Source: Nitrospirota bacterium (GTDB lineage: Bacteria; Nitrospirota; UBA9217). From it: a stretch of 60,258 nucleotides of DNA. A program made the position numbers and the translations under genes. The notes below the pieces were generated by a model. It had not been told where the DNA came from. It searched no databases and saw only the letters and a list, made by a program, of their open reading frames with translations. The stretch lies in contig JBBIMH010000021.1 in the NCBI GenBank assembly GCA_037444505.1, forward strand, positions 1-60,258, in the 5' to 3' direction. Each line of letters opens with the position of its first letter. The stretch's first letter is position 1. Positions 22,435 to 28,033 of the stretch are shown here, one piece after another.

Positions 22435-22782
22435 ATGGAACCATTGAATCGGGTTCGGGGTTTCAGCTACATGTTAGGCGTGTTCCAAAATCAGCAGAAC
22501 GACCCGTTCTGCCGCTCGTGCAATTCATATGCAACTGTCCTGTCTGCGATGAAGGAAGGCATCTCCAAGTTCGAAACGGAGAATAAAGGCTTCATAAAAG
22601 GGCTCGATGAACGATTCTCGCGCCTCTTTGCAGAGGCGAAGGCCGGGATCATGGCGATAAAGGCCCCGGAAAACCCTTTAAGGCAGAAAAAGGAGGGCAA
22701 CTGCAGACTGCCTGAAGGCGTATGTTTCCTCAAGAACTCCATGGCCATACTGCAGAAGGCTGAGCCTCAAGCATCAGCCTGA
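22435..22782 (+). CDS. Hypothetical protein with two Cys pairs (CxxC ... Cx6C)
   Basis: GAGGAGG RBS 7 nt before the ATG, 19 nt after the upstream stop. I recognise no family. Confidence 0.5.
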   Translation: MEPLNRVRGFSYMLGVFQNQQNDPFCRSCNSYATVLSAMKEGISKFETENKGFIKGLDERFSRLFAEAKAGIMAIKAPENPLRQKKEGNCRLPEGVCFLKNSMAILQKAEPQASA

Positions 22783-22908: not shown

Positions 22909-23409
22909 ATGAATGCGCTCGAGATCGCAATGAAGATGGAGACGGATTCAATAAAGTTCTACACAGAAGCGGCTCAAAAGACGAAATATCCCGCCGGAAA
23001 GAAGATGTTCGAGACCGTCGCAGAGGATGAAAAGCGGCACCTGCAGATGATCTCGGACATCATCAAAGGGCTGGATATAAAGCCCGGTGATGTGAGCCCC
23101 ATGAGGCGCGTAAAGACCGTCTTCGAGTCTATGAAAGAGCAGATGATGAAAAAGGTGGAGGCGAGCTCGGACGAACTCGAGGCATTCAAGATCGCCATGC
23201 GGATGGAGCAGGAGGGTGAGGCCTTTTACAAAAAGTCCATGCAAGAGGCGAGGACTGAAAAGGAGAAGGCCCTATTCGAGAGGCTCATCGAGGAGGAGCG
23301 GCAGCACTATCAGATCTTCGCCAATACATACTACTTTCTTTCCAATACCGGTAGCTGGTTCCTCTGGGAGGAGCATTCTATAGTAGACGGAGGCACTCCC
23401 TGGGCGTGA
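22909..23409 (+). CDS. Ferritin-like/rubrerythrin-family diiron four-helix-bundle protein (no rubredoxin domain)
   Basis: Two repeats of the E...ExxH pattern (METDSIKFY...EDEKRHLQMI and MEQEGEAFY...EEERQHYQIF). GAGGGGG RBS. Confidence 0.75.
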   Translation: MNALEIAMKMETDSIKFYTEAAQKTKYPAGKKMFETVAEDEKRHLQMISDIIKGLDIKPGDVSPMRRVKTVFESMKEQMMKKVEASSDELEAFKIAMRMEQEGEAFYKKSMQEARTEKEKALFERLIEEERQHYQIFANTYYFLSNTGSWFLWEEHSIVDGGTPWA

Positions 23410-23428: not shown

Positions 23429-23704
23429 ATGACTTACACTATTGCGGATTTGAAGAACAAGATACTGGAGATGTATCCGGAGATAAAAGAGCACAATCTA
23501 TCAGTAGATATCAGCTTCGATCTCTCTAAGAATGCGTATATAGCCGCATTCACCCGTGGGAGTGAGAAGCTCACCACCCACATAGAAAAGCATGACGCAG
23601 ACGAATGCATGAACGGGATAAAATGCGTATATCTCGGTGTGCAGGTGGCGCAGTTCATAAGGAACTTCGAGGAGAAAGAGGAGTTTTCACGCAAGGCCGC
23701 ATAA
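23429..23704 (+). CDS. Hypothetical 91-aa protein
   Basis: AAGGAGG RBS, 19 nt after the ferritin-like stop. I recognise no family. Confidence 0.5.
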   Translation: MTYTIADLKNKILEMYPEIKEHNLSVDISFDLSKNAYIAAFTRGSEKLTTHIEKHDADECMNGIKCVYLGVQVAQFIRNFEEKEEFSRKAA

Positions 23705-23723: not shown

Positions 23724-23753
23724 GCTGCCCCGCGGAGCGTGCCGTGGGGCAGC
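23724..23753. terminator. GC-rich hairpin shared by the two convergent transcription units
   Basis: GCTGCCCC (23724..23731) pairs with GGGGCAGC (23746..23753) around a 14-nt loop. It lies 20 nt after the + strand stop and 30 nt after the minus-strand mini-ORF stop. U-tracts are weak on both sides. Confidence 0.55.
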
Positions 23754-23782
23754 AGTCACTTGGCAATCCCGCCCATTCCGAA

Positions 23783-23845
23783 TCAGCAGGAGCTCTTGCA
23801 CTTGCATGTCACAGACAGCTTCTTAGAGACTTTTCTGATGGTCAT
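23783..23845 (-). CDS. 20-aa Cys-rich peptide MTIRKVSKKLSVTCKCKSSC, candidate RiPP precursor (not in the ORF track)
   Basis: My manual translation of the minus strand. A GAAGGAGG RBS sits 7 nt upstream of the ATG at 23845. The ORF starts 25 nt after the radical-SAM/SPASM stop and ends in TGA at 23783..23785, followed by the hairpin. Confidence 0.55.
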   Translation of the reverse strand: MTIRKVSKKLSVTCKCKSSC

Positions 23846-23870
23846 GACATTACCTCCTTCTTTAGAATAG

Positions 23871-25028
23871 TTATATTATACCATACAGGGCGCATCTATA
23901 GAGGTCCTTTCCGCCCCTGCCGGATATGAGCTCAGCCCTGTATCTGCATCCTCCGCGGCATAGCTCAAGATACTCGCAATCGCAATCGAGCTGCGACAGG
24001 AGGACAGGCCTTATCCTCTTCCAGCAGTTCGCAAGCCCCTCGCTGATGTTTCCCACGGAATCTTCTAGGCTGTTGTAGAATGTGCACTTGGCCGCCCTTC
24101 CGTCGGGAAGCACCGCCATGAGATGCAGCCCGCAGCCGAAGCCCTCGCCGGTTCCGTGGATGCCTCCGCCGTAGCCGTAACTCAGATACCTGCCGCCCTC
24201 CGTCGGGCTGAGTTTGAGATCATCATTTTTTCTTAGTCTTCCTGTATCGCAGGGTATGTCCACAGTCCAGTCCTTTATCCCCATCTGCTTGAAGAGCCGC
24301 TCCATCTCATCTAAGTCCGAGAGATTCCGTTTGTGGACCATAGTGGCGATGGACACATGCAGCCCCGCTTCAAGGCAGCGTCTGACTCCGTCCATAGCGC
24401 GGAGGAAGCTGCCGTCCCCCCTGATCGAGTCATGCGCATCCTTCATCCCGTCAATGCTGATCTGAACCTCATGGACTTTCAATTCTCGTACGGTTTCGTC
24501 GCTCAGAAGGAGGCCGTTGGTGAACAGCACCGTCCTTACGCCGAAAGCCGGCAGCATATCGTTTATCTCCCGGAATCCGCTGTGAAGCAGCGGCTCTCCA
24601 CCTGTTATCATCACCCTCAGTCCCTGCATTGCCTCGAATTCTCTGAGCACCTTCCGCACCTGTTCTATCGCCAGATCCTGATGGGGCTTTTCGTCTATGT
24701 AGCAATGCCTGCATCTCAGATTGCAGCGGTCCGTGATCTGGAGCTCTATGTATCTCAGCGAGGGGACAGGCGCCGGTGCAAGGGGAGGCCTCTTTATATC
24801 CACCTTCTCGGTTGTGACGATGCCCTCATCAAGGCAGTAGTCGATAAAGGCGCTGTCCCGCGTTTCGCACCCGGCCTCGGTCGCGCATGACCTGAGAAAT
24901 TCATACGAGACCTCGTCGAGCTCGTATAGCTCGTCATTAGCTATCTGATATACAGACGGGACCTCGAGCTGTTTTAGAACCGCCTGGGGAGACAGATAAT
25001 AACGCATAGACCTGCACTCTCTATCCAA
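23871..25028 (-). CDS. Radical-SAM/SPASM-domain peptide-modifying enzyme with an N-terminal RRE-like extension
   Basis: CX3CX2C (DRCNLRCRHCY) and GGEPL. The C-terminus has a full SPASM cysteine pattern (CGLHLMAVLPDGRAAKC ... CDCEYLELCRGGC ... C). About 90 aa before the core resemble a PqqD-like recognition element. The start could instead be the ATG at 25007. Confidence 0.85.
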   Translation of the reverse strand: MDRECRSMRYYLSPQAVLKQLEVPSVYQIANDELYELDEVSYEFLRSCATEAGCETRDSAFIDYCLDEGIVTTEKVDIKRPPLAPAPVPSLRYIELQITDRCNLRCRHCYIDEKPHQDLAIEQVRKVLREFEAMQGLRVMITGGEPLLHSGFREINDMLPAFGVRTVLFTNGLLLSDETVRELKVHEVQISIDGMKDAHDSIRGDGSFLRAMDGVRRCLEAGLHVSIATMVHKRNLSDLDEMERLFKQMGIKDWTVDIPCDTGRLRKNDDLKLSPTEGGRYLSYGYGGGIHGTGEGFGCGLHLMAVLPDGRAAKCTFYNSLEDSVGNISEGLANCWKRIRPVLLSQLDCDCEYLELCRGGCRYRAELISGRGGKDLYRCALYGII

Positions 25029-25124
25029 TCTCTCTCGTCCCTACGTGCCGGCTGAAAGAGTTTTATTATAATTATACACCATGCGACCGGGTCTGTTATA
25101 ATCCGAATGGGAGGGCATGTGATC

Positions 25125-25439
25125 ATGCCGCGTATATTCTGTGCAAGATACTGTAAATACTACAAGCCCGGCAAGGAAGAGATGTCTTGCATGGCGTATT
25201 CTGAAATAAACCGCCTCGAGCTGACGGATCTTCGCATAGAGCTCGGGCATAGGGATGAGCATGCGGCATATGGCAGAATATTGGATGATCTGAGACGGTC
25301 GTTATGCCTGAGATGCGAATTTTATGAGGATGGCTGCGACTTCATAGCCTCGAATGGAAATATCACTCCCTGCGGGGGACTGCTCGTTTTGGCGTATATG
25401 ATATCCTCGGGCAGGATAAAATATGATGATGTAAAATAG
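25125..25439 (+). CDS. Small Cys-rich protein (9 Cys in 104 aa), function unknown
   Basis: GGGAGGG RBS before the ATG at 25125. A TATAAT at 25097..25102 would exclude the upstream ATG at 25107. Cys motifs are CARYC, CLRCEFYEDGC and PCGG. It lies directly upstream of the oxidoreductase genes. Confidence 0.5.
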   Translation: MPRIFCARYCKYYKPGKEEMSCMAYSEINRLELTDLRIELGHRDEHAAYGRILDDLRRSLCLRCEFYEDGCDFIASNGNITPCGGLLVLAYMISSGRIKYDDVK

Positions 25440-25479: not shown

Positions 25480-27204
25480 ATGGATTATTCGATAAAGATC
25501 ACGGGCGAGGCAGGACAGGGCATTCAAACCATAGGCGAGACCCTTGCCAGGGTCTTCGGTCGGATGGGGCATTATATATTCTCGCACCAAGACTACGAAT
25601 CCCGCATACGCGGTGGTCATAATTTTTACCAGATACGCATTTCGGAGAGGCCTGTGATGTCTCCAAGGGAGAAGGTGGACATCATAGTCGCGCTGGACAA
25701 GGAGGGCGTGACCAGGCATAGGAGCGAGTTGGATCCGAAAGGCATGATCATATACGATTCCGCCTCTATAAAGGCGACGTTCGAAGGCCCTTCTTTTCTC
25801 GACATACCTTTCGCGGAGCTCGCAGTGGCGCACGGCGGGGATAAGATCATGTCCAATGTAGTCGCAACCGGCGCAGTGCTCGGGATGCTCGGGATGGAGA
25901 TCGGGCCTTTGCTCAGGCTTATCAAAGAAACATTCGTAAAAAAGGGGGAGGATATAGTTGCGAAGAATGAGAAGGCCTGTCGGGCTGGATATGACTTTGC
26001 GAAGAAAGGCTGCTTATCCTGCTCTTTTTCCGTGACCGGGAGCGGAGGGCCGAAGATGGTGATATCCGGTGTGGAGGCGATCGCCCTCGGTGCGATTGCA
26101 TCCGGCGTGAGATTCTATGCTGCATATCCCATGACGCCTTCGACAGGTATAATGAATTATCTCGCATCCAAAGAGGCGCAGTATGGGATAATAGTGGAGC
26201 AGGCTGAGGACGAAATCGCGGCCATAAACATGGCAATAGGCGCGTCTTTCGCCGGTGTCCGCTCCATGACAGCCACTTCAGGCGGTGGATTCTGCCTGAT
26301 GGTCGAGGGACTGTCCCTCGCAGCCATGACAGAGACGCCTGTTGTGATCGGCCTCGGCCAGAGACCCGGCCCTGCTACAGGCCTGCCCACGAGGACAGAG
26401 CAGGGAGAGCTCTTGTTTTCCATATTTGCCGGACATGGAGAATTTCCGCGCATCGTGTTTGCACCCGGTACCCCGGAGCAGGCCTTCTACCTCACGAACA
26501 AGGCGTTCGACCTTTCGGAAAAATACCAGATACCGGCCATAATCCTGTTCGATCAGTTTCTGGCCGACTCTCAATATACATATTCGGGATGGGACGGCTC
26601 CAAACTCAGATATACGGATTATCGTTTTCGCGGGGAGGGTGCGGCAGGTATAGACCGATACAAACGGCATGCCTTGACAGAAACAGGCATATCACCTCTT
26701 GCACTGCCGGGCAATTCGCGGCGCCTCGTGATAACCGACAGCGACGAGCATGACGAAGAAGGCCACATTATAGAAGATGCAGAGACACGGGTGAGGATGG
26801 TGGAGAAGAGGCTCCATAGGAAGACGGCCTTGCTGAAGGATGAGATCGAACCGCCGATTCTGTACGGTGATCACAGGCCTGAGGTCGTAATAGCGGGATG
26901 GGGCTCGACATTCGGGGTGATGAAGGAGGCGGTCGATCTGCTCTCACGCGAGCGCTCCATAGCGATGCTACATTTCAGCGAGTTGTGGCCGTTTCCGGAT
27001 AAGGTTCGGCTCGATTATACGGATATCCTGAAGATTGCAAAGGCGACGATCTGCATAGAGAACAATGCAACAGGCCAGTTTGCCAGACTCATGCGCTCCG
27101 AGACTGGTTATCAGTTCACTGGCCATATACACAAATTCGACGGAAGACCCTTCACTATCGAAAGGCTCAAAGGAGAGATAGATGCCCACATTGGAAAGCT
27201 ATAG
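25480..27204 (+). CDS. 2-oxoacid:ferredoxin oxidoreductase, fused gamma-alpha subunit
   Basis: N-terminal gamma-type domain (IKITGEAGQGIQTIGETLA) followed by the alpha domain (AYPMTPSTGI, EDEIAAINMAIGASFAG). Confidence 0.85.
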   Translation: MDYSIKITGEAGQGIQTIGETLARVFGRMGHYIFSHQDYESRIRGGHNFYQIRISERPVMSPREKVDIIVALDKEGVTRHRSELDPKGMIIYDSASIKATFEGPSFLDIPFAELAVAHGGDKIMSNVVATGAVLGMLGMEIGPLLRLIKETFVKKGEDIVAKNEKACRAGYDFAKKGCLSCSFSVTGSGGPKMVISGVEAIALGAIASGVRFYAAYPMTPSTGIMNYLASKEAQYGIIVEQAEDEIAAINMAIGASFAGVRSMTATSGGGFCLMVEGLSLAAMTETPVVIGLGQRPGPATGLPTRTEQGELLFSIFAGHGEFPRIVFAPGTPEQAFYLTNKAFDLSEKYQIPAIILFDQFLADSQYTYSGWDGSKLRYTDYRFRGEGAAGIDRYKRHALTETGISPLALPGNSRRLVITDSDEHDEEGHIIEDAETRVRMVEKRLHRKTALLKDEIEPPILYGDHRPEVVIAGWGSTFGVMKEAVDLLSRERSIAMLHFSELWPFPDKVRLDYTDILKIAKATICIENNATGQFARLMRSETGYQFTGHIHKFDGRPFTIERLKGEIDAHIGKL

Positions 27205-28033
27205 GGGACAGACGCCGGCCTGGTGTCCAGGCTGCGGCAACTTCGGGATTCTCAAAGCATTCAAAGATGCCATGCTCGGACTCGGTCTCGAGCCGCACAT
27301 GTTCACCATCGTCTCGGGCATAGGCCAGGCTGGAAAGTTCCCTCATTACACAAGGTGCAACACGTTCAACGGGTTGCACGGCAGGACCCTGCCTGTAGCA
27401 ACAGGGATAAGGCTCGCCAATCACGAGATGCCCGTCGTCGCAATCGCGGGAGACGGAGACTGCTACGGAGAAGGGGGCAATCACCTTATTCACGCCATAA
27501 GGCGGAATGTGAACGTCAAGCTCTTGGTGCATGACAATCAGATATACGGCCTCACAAAAGGTCAGGCCTCACCCACCACAGGAGAGGGGATGAAGACCAA
27601 GAATATGCCGTTCGGTGTTATCTCTGAGCAGCTCAATCCTGTTGCACTCGCAGTCGCCCTCGATTGCAGCTTTGTCGCCCGCTGTTATGCCGGTGAAACC
27701 AGCCATCTCACATCCATCATCATCGAGGCGATGAAGCACAAGGGCTTCTGTCTCATTGACATCCTCCAGCCCTGCGTCACCTTCAATAAAATAAACACGT
27801 ATGAGTGGTACTCGAAGCGTGTGTATAAACTGGAGAAGGACTACAACCCCGAAGACCGTGCAGCCGCATTCGTCAGGGCGCTGGAATGGGGGGACAGGCT
27901 ACCGCTCGGCGTGATATACAGAAACAGCAGACCAATCTACGAGGAGCGCATGCCTGTCATCTCGGACATGCCATTGGTCAAGAAGCCGCAAAGGAGACCG
28001 GATACAGCGGATCTCCTGAGTGAGTTCTTTTGA
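27182..28033 (+). CDS. 2-oxoacid:ferredoxin oxidoreductase, beta (TPP-binding) subunit
   Basis: WCPGCGNFGIL and GDGDCYGEGGNHLIHAIRRNVN. It overlaps the alpha-subunit end by 23 nt. Confidence 0.85.
   Translation: MPTLESYRGQTPAWCPGCGNFGILKAFKDAMLGLGLEPHMFTIVSGIGQAGKFPHYTRCNTFNGLHGRTLPVATGIRLANHEMPVVAIAGDGDCYGEGGNHLIHAIRRNVNVKLLVHDNQIYGLTKGQASPTTGEGMKTKNMPFGVISEQLNPVALAVALDCSFVARCYAGETSHLTSIIIEAMKHKGFCLIDILQPCVTFNKINTYEWYSKRVYKLEKDYNPEDRAAAFVRALEWGDRLPLGVIYRNSRPIYEERMPVISDMPLVKKPQRRPDTADLLSEFF

Follow-up and report, generated by a model that had tools for sequence, protein, structure and literature searches.

A family of 20-residue cysteine-rich peptides encoded with a radical-SAM/SPASM enzyme in Nitrospirota and their putative maturation system

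The SCIFF peptides, or ranthipeptides, of Clostridia (CteA–CteB, Tte1186a–Tte1186) are the nearest described system, in architecture and in logic, to the locus reported here. In CteB, the leader binds the RiPP (ribosomally synthesised and post-translationally modified peptide) recognition element (RRE) as a beta-strand, and a substrate cysteine touches the iron that is left open in an auxiliary cluster (PMC8326336). Moreover, SCIFF peptides are conserved throughout their lineage and have no exporter or protease of their own, which speaks against a role as antibiotics (PMC8326336). The present locus lies on a 60,258-nucleotide stretch of DNA from a Nitrospirota bacterium (assembly GCA_037444505.1, contig JBBIMH010000021.1, positions 1 to 60,258), the whole of which is referred to as the window. 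Its minus strand encodes an enzyme with an RRE, a radical S-adenosylmethionine (radical-SAM) core and a SPASM domain, an architecture assigned from motifs and predicted fold, followed by a mini-gene of 20 codons; a Cys-rich partner protein is encoded divergently. Together, the 20-residue peptide, the enzyme and the partner probably make up a three-gene peptide-maturation system of the RiPP type. That the enzyme acts on the peptide, by which chemistry, what the partner does and that the product works inside the cell are inferences. An earlier note, made from the letters of the window, had proposed a candidate small RiPP system at this place, and the comparative genomics described below support that proposal. 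The peptides appear to belong to an undescribed family, putatively modified by the enzyme, whose invariant tail suggests a cellular role and not an antibiotic one.

As in SCIFF systems, one short Cys-rich precursor with a basic N-terminal leader lies beside one candidate maturase, which has a radical-SAM core, a SPASM domain and, by predicted fold, an RRE-like domain, and the system is lineage-wide with no dedicated exporter or protease (PMC8326336). By analogy, the expected chemistry would be a thioether from cysteine to carbon, with the substrate cysteine placed at the auxiliary cluster; in ranthipeptides the sulfur is bound to a carbon other than the alpha carbon. In contrast to SCIFF precursors, which have about 45 residues and six cysteines, the precursor here has 20 residues and three cysteines and ends exactly at the last of them. 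Furthermore, the known acceptors of ranthipeptides (Thr, Asp and Asn) are not conserved in its core, the Cys-rich partner is an additional component, at times fused to the enzyme, and the phylum is Nitrospirota. With regard to SCIFF membership, the peptide returned no NCBIfam family at E values up to 1.

Other radical-SAM peptide systems share individual traits with the locus. Among the sactisynthases SkfB, AlbA and StsB, SkfB is the best match by profile and by fold and shares the domain order predicted here, with an RRE ahead of the radical-SAM core and a cluster domain at the C-terminus, and the small Gly and Ser residues near the cysteines of the peptide would suit links from sulfur to C-alpha, as in sactisynthase substrates. 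However, sequence identity to SkfB does not extend beyond the core, where it is about 20%, the scores fall short of the NCBIfam cutoffs (72 bits against 300 for SkfB, 67 against 850 for AlbA and 73 against 625 for StsB), and the precursors of sactipeptides are longer peptides of hairpin-like form that usually come with transporters and proteases. The streptococcal RaS-RiPPs (radical-SAM RiPPs; SuiA/SuiB, NxxcA/NxxcB, WgkA/WgkB) likewise combine a short precursor with a single RRE/radical-SAM/SPASM enzyme; WgkB is the top NCBIfam match of the enzyme (106 bits against a cutoff of 650), SuiB is among its top whole-length structural matches, and NxxcB makes a Cys thioether. Nonetheless, RaS-RiPPs are regulated by quorum sensing, vary between strains, come with transporters and rely on Trp, Lys or Asn chemistry, whereas the peptide described here has no aromatic residue and no transporter and is conserved throughout its lineage.

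Since the models score below their cutoffs, the known acceptors are not conserved and the Cys-rich partner has no counterpart, the system is, by sequence comparison, outside every named family tested. No NCBIfam or Pfam model matches the peptide, nine out of ten exact look-ups of peptides were absent from 15 billion proteins, the single match being unnamed, and the motif was in no paper found, a prior listing being possible in the supplements of a compendium of RRE-associated radical-SAM enzymes (PMC10288494). The earlier statement that the peptide matches no named precursor family thus holds. Literature searches found no paper that ties SPASM enzymes to Thermodesulfovibrio and, for SPASM enzymes or ranthipeptides in Nitrospirota, nothing specific, surveys of biosynthetic gene clusters giving generic 'ranthipeptide' counts.

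A conserved 20-codon gene downstream of the enzyme

The mini-gene occupies positions 23783..23845 of the minus strand and comprises 20 codons and a stop, MTIRKVSKKLSVTCKCKSSC, with its ATG at 23843..23845 and its stop codon at 23783..23785. The stop codon of the enzyme gene (23871..23873) is separated from it by a 25-nt gap containing a Shine-Dalgarno (SD) sequence, GAAGGAGG (23853..23860, minus strand), 7 nt ahead of the ATG; the earlier description of this arrangement is correct base for base. In the peptide, a basic leader (residues 1–12) precedes a Cys-rich core (residues 13–20), whose last residue is the C-terminal cysteine. The hairpin that had been noticed after the mini-gene is present at 23724..23753 of the minus strand, with an 8-bp GC-rich stem, GCTGCCCC/GGGGCAGC (also written GCUGCCCC/GGGGCAGC), followed by the U-rich UCUUCCUUU. 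Its predicted RNA fold has an energy of -34.5 kcal/mol (z = -2.2), and it would act as a terminator-like element that closes the enzyme–peptide transcription unit. A simple terminator scan did not list it, the loop being longer than 8 nt. Comparable GC hairpins with T-runs are found 3' of the peptide gene in the flanks of most loci.

A scan of one genome per species gave 403 loci anchored on the enzyme, of which the best 80, nearly all from metagenome-assembled genomes of Nitrospirota or Thermodesulfovibrionales, were analysed. A 20-codon open reading frame (ORF) of the same family lies on the same strand, 25–225 nt downstream of the enzyme, in 69 of the 80; conservation of such an ORF directly downstream of homologous enzymes was the check that the earlier note had put forward. 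The 66 distinct nucleotide versions encode 46 distinct peptides with zero indels, and residues I3, K5, T13, C14, C16, K17, S19 and C20 are constant across them. Variation is concentrated at the third codon position, with summed column entropies of 7.8, 6.9 and 22.8 for positions 1, 2 and 3, while TGA, TAA and TAG are each in use as stop codons. Of 186 peptide genes, 184 have a purine-rich, SD-like motif 3–18 nt ahead of them. The flanks of the mini-gene cannot be aligned between loci, and a degenerate pattern for the tail had no match in 100 shuffles of the window. In the closest relative, whose enzyme is 72% identical, the peptide is the same despite four synonymous differences, and the gene caller has skipped the mini-gene there as well. 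As its fixed length, the third-position variation, the three stop codons and the SD show, the mini-ORF, which is conserved in about 190 independent loci, is a protein-coding gene under strong purifying selection.

Two other readings of the mini-gene were discarded. A non-coding RNA is ruled out by the codon-position pattern together with the Rfam search, which gave zero matches in the mini-gene region, and an attenuator leader peptide is ruled out by the terminator and the convergent gene that come after the ORF.

The peptide persists in distant relatives in which the gene order has changed, with enzymes down to about 38% identity. It is encoded upstream of a fused enzyme in loci L202 (MKIRKVRKCKKGLCKCKSSC), L203 (MKIRKVTKTSRGLCKCKSSC) and L204 (MKVKKVVKKSSGLCKCKSSC), while in L199 (MKIRKVRKTVKGTCKCKSSC) the order is peptide, short partner and an enzyme of 38% identity. 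The gene lies downstream of the enzyme in L206 (VKIRKSGKKSSSTCKCSSCC), L208 (MKITKVVAKSSSTCKCSGSC) and L210 (MKIKKVVLKKSSTCKCSGSC), diverges from it in L211 (MHIKKVKKKVKKTACKCGMGC) and converges with it in L099 and L140. Two elements are constant in the family: the leader reads M-x-[IV]-[KRT]-K-V, and the tail, C-K-C-x3-C, coincides with the C-terminus of the protein and is kept in all arrangements except L205. In L205, which has the most distant enzyme, the leader is retained and the core differs (MTIRKVAKMRNNGPGKFPFITRICKSGGKCS; MTIRKVAKM...ICKSGGKCS). This bears out the division into leader and core that had been proposed, and a leader that is kept while the core changes follows, in sequence terms, the leader/core logic of RiPPs. 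With regard to the core itself, the Cys-rich C-terminal tail stands, but TCKCKSSC was too narrow a definition, the invariant part being C-K-C-x3-C-COOH. Residue 13 varies among clades (T, L or A), as do residues 17–19 (KSS, SGS, GMG or SSC); the candidates for reactive atoms are therefore the three cysteines, Lys15 and carbons of the backbone or of small residues.

The radical-SAM/SPASM enzyme and the Cys-rich partner

The candidate maturase gene (23871..25007, minus strand) encodes 378 amino acids with an RRE-like domain, a radical-SAM core and a SPASM-type auxiliary-cluster domain. The earlier note had given a 385-aa ORF from a TTG at 25028; the likelier start is the ATG at 25007 (MRYYL...), as in all homologues and in the public gene call. 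As had been noted, the enzyme carries the CX3CX2C motif CNLRCRHC (residues 95–102, 24702..24725, minus strand), which would ligate the SAM-binding [4Fe-4S] cluster; C95, C99 and C102 are constant in 29 homologues, and the radical-SAM core, the only part of the enzyme seen by Pfam, scores 84.1 bits against PF04055 (cutoff 29.5). The complete SPASM cysteine set that had been described is also there (23892..24134, minus strand; C292-x10-G303-x4-C308, C342-x-C344-x5-C350-x3-C354 and C372), and all seven cysteines are constant in the same homologues. The SPASM subfamily is defined by CX9-15GX4C, then CX2CX5CX3C and a last C, each separated by a gap; the CxC spacing of C342 and C344 departs from the canonical Cx2C, whereas the canonical Cx2Cx5Cx3C is found in distant members, P0132 among them. 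SPASM membership is argued from this motif and from fold similarity to SuiB and the anaerobic sulfatase-maturating enzymes (anSME), not from a hidden Markov model. An eighth cysteine, C253, is not conserved in distant members, and because of this loss an open site may exist at one of the auxiliary clusters, by analogy with CteB.

Relatives of the enzyme number in the thousands in databases, the best 120 being 60–72% identical over the full length. Among representatives of 50%-identity clusters, about 55 full-length or partial family clusters score 250–455 bits and are followed by generic radical-SAM scores. The NCBIfam search gave 80 matches at E ≤ 0.01, and among the best 25 of these the enzyme reaches no cutoff, with scores 3- to 13-fold too low for NirJ1, ScmE, AhbD, MftC, SkfB and AlbA; the SCIFF maturase and anSME models are not among these 25. 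In the PDB, a profile search returned remote matches to the core, with SkfB first (E 2e-21) and PqqE at E 1.7e-10. An AlphaFold2 model of the full enzyme has a predicted local distance difference test (pLDDT) score of 81 and consists of an N-terminal domain, a barrel core and a Cys-rich tail. Its best Foldseek matches in the PDB are SkfB (E 2.5e-16 over 382 columns), BlsE, SuiB, MoaA, anSME and PqqE.

These searches bear on another reading, in which the enzyme belongs to a non-RiPP SPASM group, for example the anaerobic sulfatase maturases or the NirJ/AhbD/MoaA-type heme and cofactor enzymes, and the mini-ORF lies there by coincidence or does not code for a protein. The NirJ1, AhbD, AhbC and MoaA models match the radical-SAM core with about 100 bits, and the structural similarity to MoaA and anSME reaches a template modelling (TM) score of about 0.5 (about 0.54 for anSMEcpe), which reflects the generic fold. 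Nevertheless, these sequence matches are 3- to 6-fold below the cutoffs and cover the common core, and enzymes of this kind lack an RRE; with NirJ/AhbD, MoaA, mycofactocin and sactisynthase models all below cutoff, the subfamily comparison suggested in the earlier note places the enzyme in no non-RiPP SPASM clade. In particular, anSMEs have no RRE and act on C/S-x-P-x-R substrates, whereas the enzyme here has an RRE-like domain and no recurrent sulfatase among the neighbours checked, and neither sulfatase nor heme-pathway genes occur among the neighbours scanned with Pfam and NCBIfam or among the recurring genes. The codon-position pattern, fixed length and SD of the mini-gene exclude a chance ORF, and Rfam has no match. 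We give this reading hardly any credence.

The RRE-like peptide-recognition domain corresponds to residues 1–80 (24768..25007, minus strand) and has a predicted beta-beta-beta-beta-alpha-alpha fold; PqqD-like RREs consist of a three-stranded sheet and helices. Modelled alone, these residues reach a pLDDT of 83.5, and the Foldseek matches of this model in the PDB are nearly all RREs (TbiB1, SuiB, lasso B1, LynD/TruD, CteB and MccB), TbiB1 coming first with a TM score of 0.62 and a Foldseek match probability of 0.99; the E values are weak, at 0.06 or above, as expected for 80 residues. Sequence searches of Pfam and the PDB with this domain found nothing. Its net charge is -8 in the protein of the window and between -1 and -8 in 22 homologues, that of the peptides being +5 to +8. 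Within this domain, C41, C47 and C58 vary little or not at all among main-clade enzymes, and distant relatives (L099 and L199) mostly lack them.

The third conserved component, absent from the account in the earlier note, is the partner encoded by 'cys110' (25125..25439, plus strand), a protein of 104 amino acids that is divergent from the maturase and contains the motifs C-x3-C-x-YYKP, C, C-x2-C-x-F-x4-CDF and PCGGF. It has seven invariant cysteines, and in 65 of the 80 loci its gene adjoins that of the enzyme in divergent orientation, with an identity of the protein between loci of just about 30–37%. A profile built from locus-derived sequences retrieved 357 homologues, all labelled 'hypothetical', compared with three for the window sequence alone. 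No relative was found in Pfam, NCBIfam or the PDB, the profile and per-member matches in Pfam and the PDB being at chance level. A weak NCBIfam match to a SPASM-like stretch of TIGR04311 (20 bits) gives at most a hint of a cluster-binding cysteine spacing. In five of the 50%-identity cluster representatives (P0132, P0134, P0136, P0137 and P0156, about 500 amino acids each), the partner domain is joined to the N-terminus of the enzyme, in front of the RRE-like domain, with hmmsearch E values from 1e-13 to 1e-26. Furthermore, a short form of 57–83 amino acids, which corresponds to the C-terminal half (C-x2-C-x-F ... C-G-[GA]-F-x-[IL]-L), is encoded in the same operon beside the enzyme in L199, L206, L208, L210 and L211. 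This fusion and the conserved adjacency in different arrangements are strong genomic evidence that the partner works with the enzyme.

Genomic coupling, proposed mechanism and possible function

The coupling was also examined from the side of the peptide. Metagenome contigs were scanned in a reciprocal manner with degenerate DNA for T-C-K-C-K-[SN]-S-C-stop, which gave at least 120 further copies, every one listed being this mini-gene. Among the 81 peptide-anchored loci with at least 1300 nt of upstream sequence, 58 have the enzyme directly upstream. The peptide, the enzyme and the Cys-rich partner are genomically coupled; this is the pattern of RiPP-type systems, whose precursor gene, encoding a conserved leader and core, is coupled to the gene of the modifying enzyme.

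In the proposed mechanism, the 20-residue peptide would be translated from its own strong ribosome-binding site, and its basic leader (M-T-I-[KR]-K-V...) would dock as a beta-strand on the acidic RRE-like domain. Docking would bring the core C-K-C-x3-C-COOH into the active site, with a cysteine thiolate at or near the auxiliary SPASM Fe-S cluster. Reductive cleavage of SAM would yield a 5'-deoxyadenosyl radical that would abstract a hydrogen atom from the core. The most likely outcome would be one or more intramolecular crosslinks from sulfur to carbon (thioethers), the acceptor being the invariant Lys15 or else one of the small residues that separate Cys16 from Cys20, through a carbon of its backbone or side chain. 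The partner may cooperate physically with the enzyme; it would be a metal or Fe-S module, and what it handles may be electrons, a metal ion or the peptide. Since no exporter or leader protease is conserved, the tail does not vary and a whole lineage inherits the system, the product is probably intracellular, with a role in metal or redox chemistry for example, and probably not an antibiotic.

Several observations weigh against this three-gene maturation system. The assignment of both the RRE and the SPASM domain draws on predicted fold and motifs: Pfam has no PqqD match, at E values up to 10, in the first 80 or so residues, so that of the PqqD-type element that had been placed before the core the RRE-like predicted fold stands and the PqqD family match does not. 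The Pfam SPASM model PF13186 scores 13.8 bits for the C-terminal 101 residues, below its cutoff of 21.5, and the C-terminal Cys region (residues 342–378) is modelled with a pLDDT below 50. Residues 13 and 17–19 of the peptide vary among clades and, Lys15 aside, the core has no obvious conserved side-chain acceptor. As to linkage, 23 of the 81 peptide genes (about 28%) have no enzyme nearby and, conversely, the peptide was not found within up to 4 kb downstream in 11 of the 80 enzyme loci, two of which have just 149 and 290 nt of downstream sequence. Five of these 11 belong to one enzyme clade, and a search of the 11 loci for other Cys-rich mini-ORFs found none. This would be explained most simply by a move of the peptide gene to another place in the genome in some lineages.

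A comparison of the neighbours of the unlinked peptide genes revealed no recurrent family; the contexts are varied and the peptide stands alone. Each of these genes has its own SD, as in L082, L085, L089, L096, L098, L100, L116, L117, L119, L123, L131, L133, L141, L142, L152, L153, L156, L164, L172 and others. In L085 and L152 the peptide gene adjoins radA, and a few stand-alone genes apparently have 18–19 codons or a GTG or TTG start. Among the enzymes without a peptide, a DsrE-like gene is directly downstream in L009, L014 and L022 and a methyltransferase-like gene in L053, L072 and L077, all of these except L014 forming the single clade mentioned above. Two contigs of one metagenome-assembled genome (L070 and L078) carry a near-identical enzyme–peptide pair in two copies, and L001, labelled Betaproteobacteria, has a locus typical of the Nitrospirota clade and may be mis-binned.

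The stand-alone copies raise the question of whether the peptide might be an unmodified small protein with a metal-binding, redox or regulatory function, co-inherited with the enzyme or acting as its helper, while the enzyme acts on something else. A quarter of the peptide genes occur alone, in varied contexts and with their own SD and terminator. Genes near the system often encode rubrerythrin-like and, in L099 and L140, superoxide-dismutase-like proteins. The C-x-C-x3-C motif with its flanking lysines also recalls metal-binding motifs of the metallothionein type, a likeness that we presume and that would fit such a protein. On the other hand, the enzyme carries a dedicated peptide-recognition domain, as judged by its predicted fold, and the linkage has outlasted inversions, reordering and fusions in distant clades, which is hard to account for without direct interaction. 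Moreover, no alternative substrate gene is conserved nearby. On balance, an unmodified peptide seems very unlikely.

Maturation of the peptide could also serve the synthesis of a cofactor. PqqA gives pyrroloquinoline quinone (PQQ) and MftA gives mycofactocin. The PqqA/PqqD/PqqE and MftA/MftB/MftC systems resemble the present one in having a very short precursor (PqqA has about 23 amino acids) with a strictly conserved C-terminal motif and a radical-SAM/SPASM enzyme that needs an RRE and a small partner, and in vertical inheritance and a function that is, here probably, intracellular. They differ in that the RRE-like domain is fused to the enzyme here, while the separate partner is Cys-rich and of another, unnamed family, and in that there are no peptidase or tailoring genes and the core lacks Glu/Tyr or Val-Tyr. 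A rival explanation along these lines would make the peptide a ribosomal scaffold on which the enzyme and the partner build a cofactor or metal-binding unit derived from Cys and Lys, to be released or trimmed by housekeeping proteases. The C-K-C-x3-C C-terminal tail, constant down to an enzyme identity of about 38%, resembles cofactor precursors more than antibiotics, and the system is lineage-wide, mostly single-copy and devoid of immunity or export genes. There are also metal-flavoured accessories, namely the partner with its seven cysteines and a cupin-like protein with a His-rich tail in 10 loci. Nonetheless, no peptidase, dehydrogenase or other tailoring gene is conserved, the enzyme falls far short of the cutoffs of the PqqE and MftC models (87 bits against 265 for the mycofactocin maturase) and the chemistry is wholly hypothetical; the scaffold explanation is unlikely. 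It may be put forward tentatively, as a possibility well short of probable, that anaerobic Nitrospirota have, as a lineage-wide trait, an intracellular cofactor for metal binding or redox reactions that derives from the peptide and is made by it with the enzyme, the partner and, in some lineages, the His-tailed cupin. The same tentative proposal would include that it is a housekeeping RiPP, built on the invariant C-K-C-x3-C-COOH tail, with a logic like that of PQQ and mycofactocin and a chemistry new to this enzyme class, such as a Cys–Lys crosslink or the capture of a cluster or metal.

As a three-gene maturation system, the locus would add a new triad of precursor, enzyme and partner to the radical-SAM/SPASM RiPPs, with a seven-cysteine partner domain that has no named relatives. 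The 20-codon gene family is found in hundreds of species-level genomes and is essentially missing from protein databases. The extreme conservation of the tail and the lack of export and immunity genes point to a physiological role in the poorly studied anaerobic Nitrospirota (Thermodesulfovibrionales and relatives), and the SCIFF peptides of Clostridia pose the same physiological question. With 20 residues, four of them invariant (Cys14, Lys15, Cys16 and Cys20), the putative substrate is synthetically accessible, which would make it a convenient model for the choice of donor and acceptor atoms by SPASM enzymes.

Surrounding genes

The maturase and partner genes are separated by a divergent intergenic region of 117 nt (25008..25124) with back-to-back matches to sigma-70-like promoters. 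Judged by consensus match, a putative minus-strand promoter lies at 25099..25071 (ATAACA-17-TATAAT, 10/12) and a putative plus-strand promoter at 25073..25102 (TATACA-18-TATAAT with TG, 10/12). Downstream of the partner gene, 2-oxoacid:ferredoxin oxidoreductase genes (25480..28033, plus strand; alpha 574 amino acids, beta 283) follow, as they do after the partner in about 40 of the 80 loci; this oxidoreductase could supply low-potential electrons. On the other side, two plus-strand genes converge on the mini-gene: a rubrerythrin/ferritin-like gene (22909..23409, 166 amino acids), convergent to the peptide in 49 of the 80 loci, and an unnamed gene (23429..23704, 91 amino acids) with a conserved E-C-x5-C and no Pfam match, convergent in 30 of the 80. 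In L099 and L140, genes for a superoxide-dismutase-like protein, a rubrerythrin-like protein, the 91-aa protein and the peptide share one strand, and the enzyme is convergent.

Only main-clade loci show the synteny with the oxidoreductase and the rubrerythrin-like gene, which the distant loci lack; it was for this reason rejected as a functional clue and probably reflects gene order passed on by descent. Among the neighbours of the enzyme and peptide loci, genes for transporters, proteases or immunity do not recur, in agreement with the earlier remark that neither of the first two is adjacent.

Further upstream in the window, the plus strand encodes a NifX/NifB-type protein of the 'dinitrogenase iron-molybdenum cofactor' family (PF02579; 22032..22415) and an unnamed Cys-containing protein of 115 amino acids (22435..22782), and both recur about 1–2 kb from the system in 8–9 of the 80 loci. 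The cupin-like protein with the His-rich tail has about 110 amino acids, a sub-threshold match to Cupin_2 (22 bits) and a tail ...GGHSxGGHH with up to nine His. It is found outside the window, after the partner gene in eight main-clade loci (L005, L023, L025, L057, L071, L086, L130 and L168) and after the fused enzyme in L202 (3160–3489) and L203 (4497–4856), and it may be a metal-handling accessory.

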